64,000 nucleotides of DNA. Source: an uncultured Bacilli bacterium. Lineage in GTDB: Bacteria; Bacillota_I; Bacilli_A; RF39; UBA660. The notes below the pieces were generated by a model. It did not search any database. It worked only from the letters and a program-made list of their open reading frames with translations, and was not told where the DNA came from. The stretch lies in the NCBI GenBank assembly GCA_944332675.1, contig CALVKJ010000002.1:18-64017 (forward strand), given 5' to 3'. Position numbers and translations under genes: made by a program. Positions 40,543 to 43,488 of the stretch are shown here, piece by piece (within the stretch, counting starts at the first letter, position 1; every line of letters begins with the position of its first letter).

Positions 40543-41418
40543 ATGTATGATATTATTATCATCGGTATGGGAATTAGTGGTATAACTGCTGCAATATATG
40601 CTAAAAGAGCAGGAAAAAATATTTTGTTAATTGATAAATCTGCTCCCGGAGGCTTACTTAACAACATTGATACCATTACCAACTATCCCGGTTTACCTAA
40701 TATAAGTGGACCAGATTTTGCCCTTGCTTTATTAAATCAAATAAATGAATTAGAAATTCCCTATAAAATCGAAGAAGTAATTGACATCTCACTTTCTGGC
40801 AAAGAAAAAACAGTTAAAACTGTATCAAACACTTATAAAGCCCAAAAAATAATCTTGGCTTTAGGTAGGACTCCTAAATTTTTAGGTTTACCTAATGAAG
40901 CATCTCTTTTAGGCAAAGGAGTATCTACTTGTGCTTTATGTGATGCATTTTTCTATAAAAATAAGGATATTGCTGTAGTTGGTACTGGTAATAGTGCTTT
41001 ACAAGAAGCATTATATCTTGCTAATGTTGTTAATAAAATCTATCTTATCAACCGGCGTGATGGCTTCCGAGGAGATGCCTTATTAGTTGATAAAATAAAA
41101 AATAATCCAAAAATTGAAGTAATTTACAATAGTAATATTGAAAGTTTAAATGAATTAGATGGCAAACTAGCTTCTATTACTTTAGATAATGCTACTACTA
41201 TAAATGTATCGGGAGTATTTATCTATATTGGCTTTATACCCGCTACTAAAATAGTGGATCCTAAAATATTAGATGAAAACGGTTATATTAAGGTAAACAA
41301 AAAGCTAGAAACTCCTATCAAAGGGGTTTATGCTATCGGAGATTGCTTAAATAAAGATATTTATCAACTTGTAACTGCTGCCGCTGATGGAGCTAGAGTA
41401 ATAAATAATATTGAATAA
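40543..41418 (+). CDS. trxB: thioredoxin-disulfide reductase-like FAD/NAD(P) oxidoreductase
   Basis: GMGISGITAAIYA FAD motif, redox CALC in the position of CATC, VVGTGNSALQEA NADPH motif and GVYAIGDC. Shorter than typical TrxB. Confidence 0.7.
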   Translation: MYDIIIIGMGISGITAAIYAKRAGKNILLIDKSAPGGLLNNIDTITNYPGLPNISGPDFALALLNQINELEIPYKIEEVIDISLSGKEKTVKTVSNTYKAQKIILALGRTPKFLGLPNEASLLGKGVSTCALCDAFFYKNKDIAVVGTGNSALQEALYLANVVNKIYLINRRDGFRGDALLVDKIKNNPKIEVIYNSNIESLNELDGKLASITLDNATTINVSGVFIYIGFIPATKIVDPKILDENGYIKVNKKLETPIKGVYAIGDCLNKDIYQLVTAAADGARVINNIE

Positions 41419-41446
41419 TCTATATAAATTTGTTATATTATATATG

Positions 41447-41511
41447 TAAGTGTTACCCGTATGGAGTAACGCCTGCATAAATGCTAGAGCGCTATTTTCA
41501 GCGCTTTTTTT
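41447..41511 (+). ncRNA. candidate antisense RNA (or trxB-like 3' UTR) ending at a terminator
   Basis: Possible promoter TTGAAT-17-TATATT (~41411-41439) overlapping the end of the trxB-like gene. Terminator AGAGCGCT-loop-AGCGCTTT plus a T run at ~41486-41511. Fully complementary to the 3' part of the minus-strand transcript. Confidence 0.3.
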
Positions 41512-41578
41512 CATGGCTTCGATCAAGAATGATGAGAACCATAATTATTATTACTTGATAAAATAGATTATCGTTCAT
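41498..41578 (-). CDS. candidate type I toxin-like small hydrophobic peptide (26 aa)
   Basis: ATG..TGA encodes MNDNLFYQVIIIMVLIILDRSHEKKR (hydrophobic core, charged tail). GAGG lies just upstream. Embedded in a GC-rich, highly paired ~220-nt transcript. Too short to appear in the ORF track. Confidence 0.3.
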   Translation of the reverse strand: MNDNLFYQVIIIMVLIILDRSHEKKR

Positions 41579-41677
41579 AACCTCGCCTGGATTCACCCGA
41601 TCTCCCAAAAGTTTCCCCTTGAAAGTGAATTACTCACAAAGAAAAGCAGGCGCCTACCACACAGGTAACGGTTAATT

Positions 41678-41706
41678 ATTCTAAAGTTGATTTGTAAAAA
41701 TTGCAA
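41678..41706 (-). promoter_or_regulatory. promoter for the minus-strand structured transcript
   Basis: On the minus strand: TTGCAA-17 nt-TAGAAT. The predicted start at ~41670 coincides with the first nucleotide of the long-range helix. Confidence 0.45.
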
Positions 41707-41737
41707 GAAAAGTCGTACGACAAAATTCGACATCAAT

Positions 41738-41766
41738 TTGTCATTTTACTAAATTTATGATAAAAT
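41738..41766 (+). promoter_or_regulatory. promoter for ORF 41788
   Basis: TTGTCA-17 nt-TAAAAT. Confidence 0.45.
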
Positions 41767-41787
41767 ATAGCCCAAGGTGCAGGGGTT

Positions 41788-43488
41788 ATGAAGAAAAATA
41801 GTTTTTTAGAATTAATATGTAGTTTAATTGTTATAGTCTTAGTATTAATAGGATTTAAGACTTATGATGAATATATTGAAGCTAACAACAATACTTTAAC
41901 TTATCCATTATTAACATATAATACTGAAGTATCAAACTTTTCTTATATTAATCAAGTAATTTCTCAAAATAAAGTTTATCTTTTATATAATAGTGAAGAT
42001 TATTATTTATTAAAAGAAATAGATATAACTACTAATAAAGAAAACGTTTATTCAGCAATTATTAATAGTACCTGTAAATTACAAAATGAAAATTCTTACC
42101 CTTATATATATTGTTCAGATAATAATACTGTTGAAATCTATGATATTACATTTAATAAGCTAATTACACAAGATATAAGTAGTAATTATAATTATTCTAT
42201 TAATACGAATAATGCTAATATGAGTTTTAGTATTATTGATAATGATATTGCTTATAAATATATTGATGGTTATTATCAAAACAGAAGTAATGCTTTTGTA
42301 TCCCTTGATACTCCTTATATAAAAGATGCCTATTGCACGGATAACTGTTTACTAATTCGTTATAATGACTTAACTGAAATGCTTAGCTTATATCGCGAAA
42401 ATGAATTGTTAGAAACCAATATTGCAGCTTATCAACTTTATAGTAATGGAGTGCTTACTTATAATAATTCTAAGATCAAAATTTATGATGAAAACACCGA
42501 TGAATATAAAGAATTTAATAGTCCAATCGCTGATTTAATAAATACTACTTTTACCCTTGGGGCTAATGACTATTACCTTTATGTTTTAAATGACAATATA
42601 ATAAACGTCTATAATTTGTATAATTCTGCCAATTTTACAAATATCGACATCAGCAAAGTAAAATATGATGTTAATAACTTAACAGTTAATAACAATTATC
42701 TTTATTTATTTACTGATAGTATTTTATATGTCTATGACATTCGCGAAATTGAATTTGACAATTCGGCCTCTAGTTATGAAGACGAATTAATCAACAGTAA
42801 AATTGCTTATTATAATGACATATATAATGTAAATATAAATATTAATAGTGATCCTAGTAATTTAAGTAGTAATTATAATATTACACCAACTACTAATTAT
42901 AATGATATAATTGATGCTCTAGAAGATTTAGAACGTTATTTCCTAGTTTTTAATGCTGACTTTTTTCAAAGGTTTACAGGTTATGGTATGGATGGACTTG
43001 AAATATACTTAGTTGATGATATTACATCTACTACTAAAAATGAATTTGGTAATGCTGATGTAGTAGGGGTATTTGTTCGAAAAAATAATAAGTATAATAT
43101 AATATTAAAAGTAAATAGTGAAGAAAATATTAACACTATTGCTTTCCATGAAACTTTCCATGCTATCGAAGATTATTTAGCATCCTTTAATATTACTTTT
43201 GCTAATTGGGATAATCTAAATCCTGATAACTTTACATATTCCAATATTTATTATACTAATCAAATATTTACGGACACATTAAATAATAATAAATATAATA
43301 ATGGTATTTATTTTATTGATAACTATGCTCGTAGTAATGCTTTAGAAGACCGAGCTAGAACATTTGAATATATTTGCCAAGGTGAAGACTTTAGTGAATA
43401 TCCGCACCTTCAAGCTAAGGTTAAGTATATTAAACAAATAGTATTAGCAAATTTTCCAGAGTTATATAATTCTAGTTATTTTATATAA
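41788..43488 (+). CDS. membrane-anchored Asn/Tyr-rich protein with C-terminal HExxH (putative zinc metallopeptidase) domain
   Basis: N-terminal TM (LELICSLIVIVLVLIGF), a long N/Y-rich beta-like region, and IAFHETFHAIEDY (HExxH) with a downstream Glu/Asp-rich segment. Confidence 0.45.
   Translation: MKKNSFLELICSLIVIVLVLIGFKTYDEYIEANNNTLTYPLLTYNTEVSNFSYINQVISQNKVYLLYNSEDYYLLKEIDITTNKENVYSAIINSTCKLQNENSYPYIYCSDNNTVEIYDITFNKLITQDISSNYNYSINTNNANMSFSIIDNDIAYKYIDGYYQNRSNAFVSLDTPYIKDAYCTDNCLLIRYNDLTEMLSLYRENELLETNIAAYQLYSNGVLTYNNSKIKIYDENTDEYKEFNSPIADLINTTFTLGANDYYLYVLNDNIINVYNLYNSANFTNIDISKVKYDVNNLTVNNNYLYLFTDSILYVYDIREIEFDNSASSYEDELINSKIAYYNDIYNVNININSDPSNLSSNYNITPTTNYNDIIDALEDLERYFLVFNADFFQRFTGYGMDGLEIYLVDDITSTTKNEFGNADVVGVFVRKNNKYNIILKVNSEENINTIAFHETFHAIEDYLASFNITFANWDNLNPDNFTYSNIYYTNQIFTDTLNNNKYNNGIYFIDNYARSNALEDRARTFEYICQGEDFSEYPHLQAKVKYIKQIVLANFPELYNSSYFI

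Follow-up and report, generated by a model that had tools for sequence, protein, structure and literature searches.

A multi-copy chromosomal module of small-genome gut Bacilli, probably of the type I toxin-antitoxin kind, with a 5'-3' mRNA clamp overlapped by a predicted antisense RNA

The intergenic region at positions 41405-41735 of a 64,000-nucleotide stretch of contig CALVKJ010000002.1 (assembly GCA_944332675.1, from an uncultured Bacilli bacterium; the whole stretch is referred to here as the window) raises the question of whether a structured minus-strand RNA with a 26-codon open reading frame (ORF), overlapped on its 3' side by a short plus-strand RNA, represents a toxin gene with its antitoxin or an element of some other kind. 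A sequence-only reading of the window had proposed a type I toxin-antitoxin-like locus here, and comparative evidence now supports each of the sequence-level parts of that proposal. The region is probably, as judged from its sequence and that of its relatives, one intact representative of a module of the type I toxin-antitoxin kind that is chromosomal and present in multiple copies, forming a new sequence family that lies outside every named family and is most like the 3'-overlap systems of Bacillus subtilis. The definition of type I systems used here comprises a small (20-60 aa) hydrophobic peptide encoded in a short (150-400 nt) mRNA (PMC8594479), a non-coding antisense RNA complementary to that mRNA, and toxicity of the overproduced peptide, whose synthesis the RNA prevents; the 26-aa ORF and predicted mRNA of ~225 nt of the present module fall within these size limits.

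The module is ~330 bp in length, and the window contains one intact member of a chromosomal family. It should be noted that the host assembly is a 1.05-Mb metagenome-assembled genome (MAG) consisting of 69 contigs and 68% complete. BLAST searches of this assembly with a 241-nt core as the query gave further full-length copies with 69-71% identity, and sensitive blastn together with nhmmer gave at least 11 copies, including two tandem pairs and one partial copy; copies of the 320-bp unit within one genome are 65-75% identical. Matches at E <= 2e-5 were found in 15 of 36 other genomes of the same genus, often several in each genome and often in tandem with a spacing of about 350-375 bp, and the module was found 141 times across the loci that were fetched. 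The copies are mutually related, so that the copy counts given here are not counts of independent events. Two alignments (A1 and A2) contain 23 copies and a third (A3), fitted to a sequence-only model, contains 115; in the alignments, register between copies is held by the promoters, the start codon, the hairpin, and the inverted repeat.

The taxonomic spread of the module was determined from BLAST and from exact matches to a conserved 24-nt pattern, GGTAACRCTTACANNTNTANTATA. The pattern is present in 95 stretches in public genomes, all from gut MAGs of small genome size that carry the labels uncultured Bacilli, 'Tenericutes', or Erysipelotrichaceae; Candidatus Onthocola from chicken is among them, and they come from chicken, water buffalo, rabbit, horse, and human hosts. 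It also occurs in 31 metagenome contigs. Among 401 genomes sampled from the class, exact matches are confined to the genus of the window and are present in none of 46 other genera of the family and in none of the controls. A scan of viral contigs with the 24-nt pattern gave no match, and a distant blastn search of plasmid and phage collections gave no match to the module.

The ORF on the minus strand (41498-41578, stop codon included) encodes the 26-aa peptide MNDNLFYQVIIIMVLIILDRSHEKKR; it was located by an ORF scan and is supported by frame openness, by T at codon position 2, and by the ratio of nonsynonymous to synonymous polymorphism (pN/pS). Across the family, the ORF encodes 22-29 residues. 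In 88 of 92 distinct copies a start codon occupies the aligned column, the ATG being invariant in the 23 copies of A2, and 85 of the 92 have 20 or more open codons in frame 0, as compared with 0 and 18 for the other two frames. The sequence-only reading had predicted this ORF and had staked its case on the ORF being conserved in homologous regions, as it proves to be, with coding selection acting on it. Codons 9-15 and 17, eight in all, have an invariant T at position 2 in the 23 aligned copies, which therefore points to selection for Val, Ile, Leu, Met, or Phe with the first and third positions free; codon position 2 also has the lowest column entropy. The layout of the peptide is a short polar N terminus, a hydrophobic core of 14-16 residues, and a basic tail, and it is presumed to act on the membrane. 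Two unrelated-looking classes of peptide, with and without the basic tail, are found on the one RNA scaffold: class A (MNDNxFxxVIII...EKRR and relatives; 26-29 aa) has the tail, and class B (MKEE..LLVIIILLIVVILRLI; 22-25 aa) has no tail. Pooled pN/pS values are 0.70 for class A and 0.41 for class B. An exact look-up of ten peptide variants in a collection of 15 billion proteins found none of them. Sub-threshold NCBIfam matches to MgtU (19.1 bits, cut-off 33) and PhrA (11.6 bits, cut-off 40) were ascribed to hydrophobic composition. The class A tail, Glu-Lys-Lys-Arg (GAA AAA AAG CGC TGA, 41498-41513 in the window), is encoded by an A-run and the first bases of a stem, which on the opposite strand form the U-tract and stem of the antisense terminator described below; class B ORFs end just ahead of the A-run.

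The peptide gene is preceded by a σA-type promoter on the minus strand (TTGCAA-17-TAGAAT, 41678-41706), identified by a promoter scan and by conservation. Among the 23 aligned copies, conservation of its -35 TTG and -10 TA..AT is complete or at least 90%, in agreement with the assignment made from the window copy. The core of the predicted peptide mRNA (~225 nt, minus strand, 41447-41672) has a start inferred from the promoter and a 3' end that is not defined. The minus-strand RNA from 41672 to 41445 (228 nt) has a predicted folding energy of -77.3 kcal/mol (z = -6.4), matched by none of 200 shuffled sequences, and its fold is closed by a 13+9-bp helix between the 5' and 3' ends (41669-41646 with 41476-41452), the fold-back that the sequence-only reading had described. 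The 5' arm, GTTACCTGTGTGGTAGGCGCCTGC (41646-41669, minus strand), is supported by pairing and compensatory changes, and the 3' arm (41452-41476, minus strand) by folds and covariation; the plus-strand equivalent of the 3' arm is the 5' hairpin of the predicted antisense RNA. The distance from GTTAC to GTAAC, with a median of 221 nt in 87 copies, is consistent with an mRNA of this size.

Covariation in the closing helix, which the sequence-only reading had named as a check, is present. In A3, pairing reaches 91% in the outer helix, where 8 of 13 pairs show compensatory changes, and 75% in the inner helix, where 8 of 9 pairs do so, giving 16 of 22 pairs for the clamp; none of 500 shuffles reached the observed values, and slid controls were 36-51% paired. 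The mean energy of arm pairing is -31.4 kcal/mol for cognate arms, -23.6 for non-cognate arms, and -12.5 for shuffled arms, and the cognate arm is among the best 10% of partners in 72% of copies. RNAalifold, applied to A1, recovered the same closing helix together with the terminator hairpin. In 64 of 82 distinct copies the sense strand forms a more stable clamp helix than the complementary strand does (Wilcoxon p = 3e-11), and the G·U pairs number 197 on the sense strand and 78 on the complement. This asymmetry, together with the covariation, therefore indicates selection at the level of RNA rather than a terminal inverted repeat maintained at the level of DNA.

The Shine-Dalgarno (SD) region, CCAGGCGAGGTT (41579-41590, minus strand), lies ahead of the ATG and was recognized from its sequence; a G-rich SD-like block is conserved before the invariant ATG. 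In the minimum free energy (MFE) fold, this region pairs with a pyrimidine-rich segment that follows the 5' arm, UUUUCUUUGUGAG (41633-41645, minus strand), which is a candidate anti-SD sequence. The pairing of this segment (UUUUCUUUG in the window) with the ribosome-binding site (RBS) has energies of -10.0 kcal/mol for cognate, -8.1 for non-cognate, and -7.6 for shuffled partners, so that modelling lends modest support to an anti-SD role across the family. A different pairing had been suggested previously, between CGCCTG at the 5' end and CCAGGCG just upstream of the SD; it exists in the window copy but is not conserved in the family (cognate -8.9, non-cognate -8.7, and shuffled -9.1 kcal/mol). 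The one hint of expression is that RNA-labelled chicken-gut runs contain 24-38% of sampled words of 41440-41680.

The plus-strand unit begins with a promoter at 41411-41439 (-35 TTGAAT, 17 nt, TATATT), found by a promoter scan and by its conservation, in which TG at 41431-41432 makes an extended -10, TGTTATATT. Conservation in the 23 copies is complete or at least 90% for the -10, the TG, and the -35 TTG, also in copies far from any trxB gene. The predicted product is an antisense RNA of ~66 nt (plus strand, 41446-41511) that forms two hairpins (-23.4 kcal/mol, z = -3.7); across copies the median length is 71 nt, and a two-hairpin MFE structure is obtained in 60 of 84. It would end at an intrinsic terminator composed of a hairpin and U-tract (plus strand, 41486-41511), identified by a terminator scan and by covariation. 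The hairpin at 41486-41507 followed by its T-run is the sole terminator-like site in 41300-41850, shuffled sequences averaging 0.2, and its stem has 85-93% of cells paired, with compensatory changes. At least 6 of 8 residues after the hairpin are U in the antisense direction in 74 of 93 copies, and the presence of this tract in the antisense direction only indicates, therefore, that the hairpin terminates the antisense RNA and not the peptide mRNA. The promoter and terminator thus stand as originally assigned. The caveat attached to them, that the terminator may simply belong to the adjacent trxB-like gene, does not hold, because terminator and promoter are conserved in copies away from trxB; the terminator therefore belongs to the module, and trxB probably borrows it. 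The predicted antisense RNA overlaps the last codons and stop codon of the ORF at 41498-41511 and is a perfect complement of the mRNA through its last codons, its hairpin, and the clamp's 3' arm.

These features suggest a mechanism in which the Spo0A-box-flanked σA promoter would produce an mRNA that reads through the hairpin and whose ends would be clamped by the ~22-bp helix, shielding it from exonucleases, with the SD largely paired, in part to the pyrimidine-rich leader. An abundant antisense RNA would pair with the last ~66 nt of the mRNA to form a ~66-bp duplex which, by analogy with txpA/RatA and bsrG/SR4, would be a likely substrate for RNase III. Binding of the antisense RNA would also displace the 5' arm, so that the 5' end, no longer clamped, would be open to decay, the mRNA would be degraded, and little peptide would be made. 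Peptide would be produced when the ratio of antisense RNA to mRNA falls or when Spo0A alters the activity of the sense promoter.

The possible involvement of Spo0A arises from direct repeats, TGTCGAA-N3-TGTCG(A/T)A, that the copies share upstream of the peptide-gene promoter. The consensus Spo0A box is 5'-TGTCGAA-3', and dimers of Spo0A~P bind pairs of boxes separated by 3 bp (PMC2731898). In the window, the first box-like motif, TGTCGAA, is at 41726-41732 on the minus strand, recognized by sequence and conservation, and the second, TGTCGTA (6/7), follows it by 3 bp at 41716-41722 on the same strand to complete the direct-repeat pair. At least one forward TGNCGAA is present at fixed positions in 71 of 82 distinct upstream regions, with a reverse box in one only, and a pair with 3-bp separation and no more than one mismatch per box is present in 54 of 82 copies, as compared with 0.03% of random 102-nt genome windows. 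The Spo0A_C domain (PF08769) is encoded once per genome in all 24 same-genus genomes (G001-G024), and SpoIVA is encoded in the host MAG (contig C46, 3073-3783) and in 14 of 15 other genomes of the genus. The presence of Spo0A and SpoIVA identifies the lineage as spore-forming, and control of the peptide promoter by Spo0A is plausible. The promoter is near-consensus by itself, so that Spo0A could act on it in either direction. The genus is an endospore-former lineage with unusually small genomes, ~1.0-1.5 Mb. Tandem TGTCGAA-N3-TGTC(G/T) pairs also occur at module-free sites of the host genome, just upstream of AT-rich -10-like sequences (C4:36199, C6:3677, C35:9077, C29:9475, C19:19920, and window ~5295, equivalent to C2:5312), which suggests that a Spo0A-type regulon can be read from this genome.

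A more far-reaching extension of the type I reading, possible but rather doubtful at present, is that the cassettes constitute a battery of membrane toxins wired to Spo0A in spore-formers whose genomes are minimal (~1.2-1.5 Mb), with mRNAs kept inert and stable by the clamp, an antitoxin that invades the 3' arm of the clamp, and the whole set switched by Spo0A~P at entry into sporulation. Were this so, the switch could arrest or lyse a cell type or exclude phages, and type I modules would belong to a developmental programme in addition to their roles in addiction or stress; the invasion of a 3' arm would also differ from the known modes of antitoxin action, namely SD occlusion, standby-site block, and simple duplex cleavage.

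The genomic behaviour of the family bears on its classification. The sites downstream of trxB, upstream of an ileS-like gene, and upstream of a clpB-like gene are all occupied by modules in relatives; one to three tandem copies are present at syntenic intergenic sites, and the class of the peptide sometimes differs at the same site. Tandem copies, syntenic sites, and turnover of subtypes represent the behaviour seen in chromosomal type I loci. In another species (L094:3038-3693), two tandem class B modules lie downstream of a trxB homologue with 77% identity, whereas the matching trxB site in the window holds one class A module, so that the site is kept and its cassette content turns over. The GC-rich island noted in the sequence-only reading is present, but it is modest, with a G+C content of 0.36-0.40 as compared with 0.16-0.30 around it.

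Several observations weigh against the identification of the module as a toxin-antitoxin system. No terminator is visible for the sense mRNA, a tract with at least 6 of 8 U after the hairpin in the sense direction being found in 0 of 93 copies, and the 3' end of this mRNA and the formation of the clamp therefore hinge on processing of the mRNA, which is not observed. The RBS window has a mean unpaired probability of 0.30-0.35 and is mostly paired in every modelled state; when the 3' region is blocked, as if antisense RNA were bound, the value drops from 0.35 to 0.30, and with so small a shift there is no strong computational case for a translational switch. The hydrophobic stretch of 14-16 residues is short for a transmembrane helix, a reservation already voiced in the sequence-only reading that is still valid, and pN/pS values of 0.4-0.7 indicate modest constraint beyond hydrophobicity. 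Searches of Pfam and NCBIfam with six peptides gave no toxin family and no Pfam match at E <= 10. At least 10 toxin genes per ~1.5-Mb genome is many for a purely selfish system. With respect to regulation, Spo0A_C was not found in the 68%-complete host MAG, and a tblastn search of this MAG with the C-domain of B. subtilis Spo0A gave no match, the receiver domain matching OmpR-type regulators only.

The alternative that best survives these comparisons, although it is unlikely, retains the peptide gene and its cis-antisense regulator but takes the peptide to be a non-toxic small membrane protein, the level of which is tuned by the antisense RNA; its role might lie, for instance, in development under the control of Spo0A, in the remodelling of membranes, or in regulating a membrane complex. 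Gram-positive bacteria commonly have small membrane proteins that are not toxic, the evidence from coding selection, promoters, and structure fits such a peptide equally well, the arrays of Spo0A boxes in a spore-former suggest a developmental role, and the weak sub-cut-off NCBIfam match is to a small membrane regulator, MgtU. However, at least 10 diverged paralogues per ~1.5-Mb genome, tandem duplication, and exchange of subtypes at a given site are what type I toxins typically show, and it is hydrophobicity alone that is conserved, unlike the case of a protein with a specific partner. Locking of an mRNA as elaborate as that produced by the clamp and the sequestered SD is seen where leaky translation is harmful, and the occurrence of two unrelated-looking peptide classes on one RNA scaffold also argues against a non-toxic function.

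A second alternative, which is very improbable, is that the module is a selfish or structural repeat with an incidental ORF, either similar to a miniature inverted-repeat transposable element (MITE) with terminal inverted repeats or a palindrome that supplies terminators in the manner of repetitive extragenic palindromic (REP) sequences. Such an origin might be expected from the multiple copies, the inverted repeats of ~25 nt at the bounds, the 33 of 82 copies that lie at stop codons of inward-reading genes and probably act as terminators, and the partial copies that retain just the hairpin side. The inverted repeat, however, is selected as RNA on one strand, as shown by the G·U counts and the relative stabilities of the two strands given above, and its arms covary instead of holding a single transposase-site consensus. 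Target-site duplications are not visible in 79 pairs of flanks, and 65-75% identity within a genome combined with syntenic sites across species indicates, therefore, that the copies did not arise by recent transposition. Outside the repeats, two promoters and a frame-specific ORF are conserved as well, and the plasmid, phage, and viral collections searched contain no copies. A MITE or transposon-derived repeat was rejected on the basis of strand asymmetry, covariation, the lack of flank duplications, and the level of identity.

The partial copies are of some interest in relation to the type I reading. All of nine internal partial copies (host C20:1962-2067 and one each at L043, L112, L056, L106, L099, L040, L047, and L021) retain the hairpin, the 3' arm, and the antisense promoter, and three of the nine are internal deletions in which the leader, RBS, and ORF start are missing and both promoters are kept. 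This pattern suggests that loss of the toxin is tolerated and loss of the antitoxin is not, with the reservation that a bias towards the antisense half is to be expected, the pattern used to fetch most of the loci being itself located there.

That the minus-strand product might be a structured non-coding RNA with a closing stem and an untranslated ORF is scarcely tenable, since the very stable fold (z = -6.4), the covarying closing helix, and the mostly paired SD would be accounted for but the period-3 pattern, the T at codon position 2, and the frame-specific openness would be left unexplained, many diverged copies per genome argue against a housekeeping RNA, and Rfam, type I families included, gives no match for the whole window at gathering thresholds and, even at E <= 10, only chance-level matches in the 421-nt stretch 41380-41800 (SraG, 19.9 bits against a cut-off of 50, and similar). 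A confident match to a housekeeping RNA, which the sequence-only reading had regarded as decisive against it, is consequently absent from these searches. Closing stems of the type found in 6S RNA, signal recognition particle (SRP) RNA, and transfer-messenger RNA (tmRNA) were considered for the 5'-3' helix, and these identities were dropped because no model matches and the unit has many diverged copies.

Among characterized type I systems, the module is closest to those of B. subtilis, in which TxpA/RatA, BsrG/SR4, BsrE/SR5, and YonT/SR6 have their antisense RNA on the 3' side, reaching over the ORF end (PMC8594479), and in which the duplex is cleaved by RNase III, SR4 in addition tightening the sequestration of the SD (PMC6562991). 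As in txpA/RatA, bsrG/SR4, bsrE/SR5, and yonT/SR6, the genes are convergent and the antisense RNA, predicted in the case of the module, is on the mRNA's 3' side over the end of the ORF; other shared features are a small hydrophobic peptide, a sequestered SD, a Firmicute host, and an expected RNase III-sensitive duplex (PMC6562991, PMC8594479). The systems differ in that there is no similarity between the peptides (no Pfam or NCBIfam match, the TxpA/BsrG and BsrE/BsrH families included), no match of the module to the Rfam antitoxin families (RatA, SR4, and others), and an overlap of ~66 nt as compared with the reported 100-140 bp in B. subtilis. Unlike the B. subtilis systems, the antisense target in the module doubles as an arm of the clamp, the toxin promoter carries arrays of 0A boxes, and the module is chromosomal and present in at least 10 copies, not in a prophage or skin element.

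The par locus of Enterococcus faecalis pAD1 (Fst/RNA I, RNA II), and chromosomal par-like loci, resemble the module, as predicted from its sequence, in having convergent promoters about 300 bp apart, an antitoxin RNA of ~65 nt that ends at a shared hairpin, a toxin mRNA of ~210 nt with its 5' end and SD sequestered intramolecularly, and a peptide with a hydrophobic core and charged C-terminal tail (PMC7472228). However, par has a bidirectional terminator, whereas the module hairpin is followed by a U-tract in the antisense direction in 74 of 93 copies and in the sense direction in 0 of 93. In par, complementarity comes from the direct repeats DRa and DRb over the start site; in the module it is supplied by the inverted repeat at the 3' end, and the 5' part of the antisense RNA resembles the 5' end of the mRNA rather than complementing it. 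Fst has a PXXXG motif, whereas the module peptides have no P...G motif and no match to the Fst Pfam family at E <= 10. In the hok/Sok system of plasmid R1, the full-length mRNA is reportedly locked by fold-back pairing of its extreme 5' end with its 3' end, and the 5'-3' lock of the module is functionally like this fold-back inhibition. Sok, however, binds to the 5' leader (mok), whereas the predicted antisense RNA of the module covers the 3' arm itself; the module also has no visible leader ORF, and hok/Sok is a Gram-negative system with an unrelated peptide. With respect to regulation, the toxin promoters of tisB/IstR-1, symE/SymR, and dinQ/AgrB in E. coli are overlapped by LexA boxes (PMC6562991). 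The module resembles tisB, symE, and dinQ in having sites for a global stress or developmental regulator on the toxin promoter, but the motif is of the Spo0A type (TGTCGAA pairs, 3 bp apart) and the RNA architecture is different.

The potential significance of the family stems from several of its properties. It fills at least 10 sites in a ~1.5-Mb genome of uncultured gut spore-formers, which have been found in samples from chicken, rumen, rabbit, horse, and human. If the type I reading is correct, it provides a compact natural RNA device in which the 3' arm of a 5'-3' clamp is the antisense target, and offers roughly 100 natural variants for structure-function work, as well as a link, open to testing, between the sporulation master regulator and small toxins. 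In these MAGs it also accounts for otherwise 'empty' intergenic regions and for the terminators that many adjacent genes use. Annotation reveals hardly any type I toxin-antitoxin systems, and few lineages are known to have them. The database T1TAdb contains 24 families, from genomes already in the literature (PMC8594479).

In the window, the stop codon of the trxB-like ORF (TAA, 41416-41418) shares bases with the -35 of the antisense promoter, and in 33 of 82 distinct copies (40%) a gene running into the module in the antisense direction has its stop codon within -23 to +55 nt of the copy. The hairpin of the module probably terminates these adjoining inward-reading genes too, including trxB; where it also ends a neighbouring gene, the 3' untranslated region of that gene would therefore hold the whole antitoxin sequence. 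On the other side, a promoter-like sequence, TTGTCA-17-TAAAAT (10/12 matches, with TG), is located at 41738-41766 on the plus strand ahead of a downstream gene for a 566-aa HExxH membrane protein; it is back to back with the 0A-box pair, and the boxes could therefore act on both divergent promoters.

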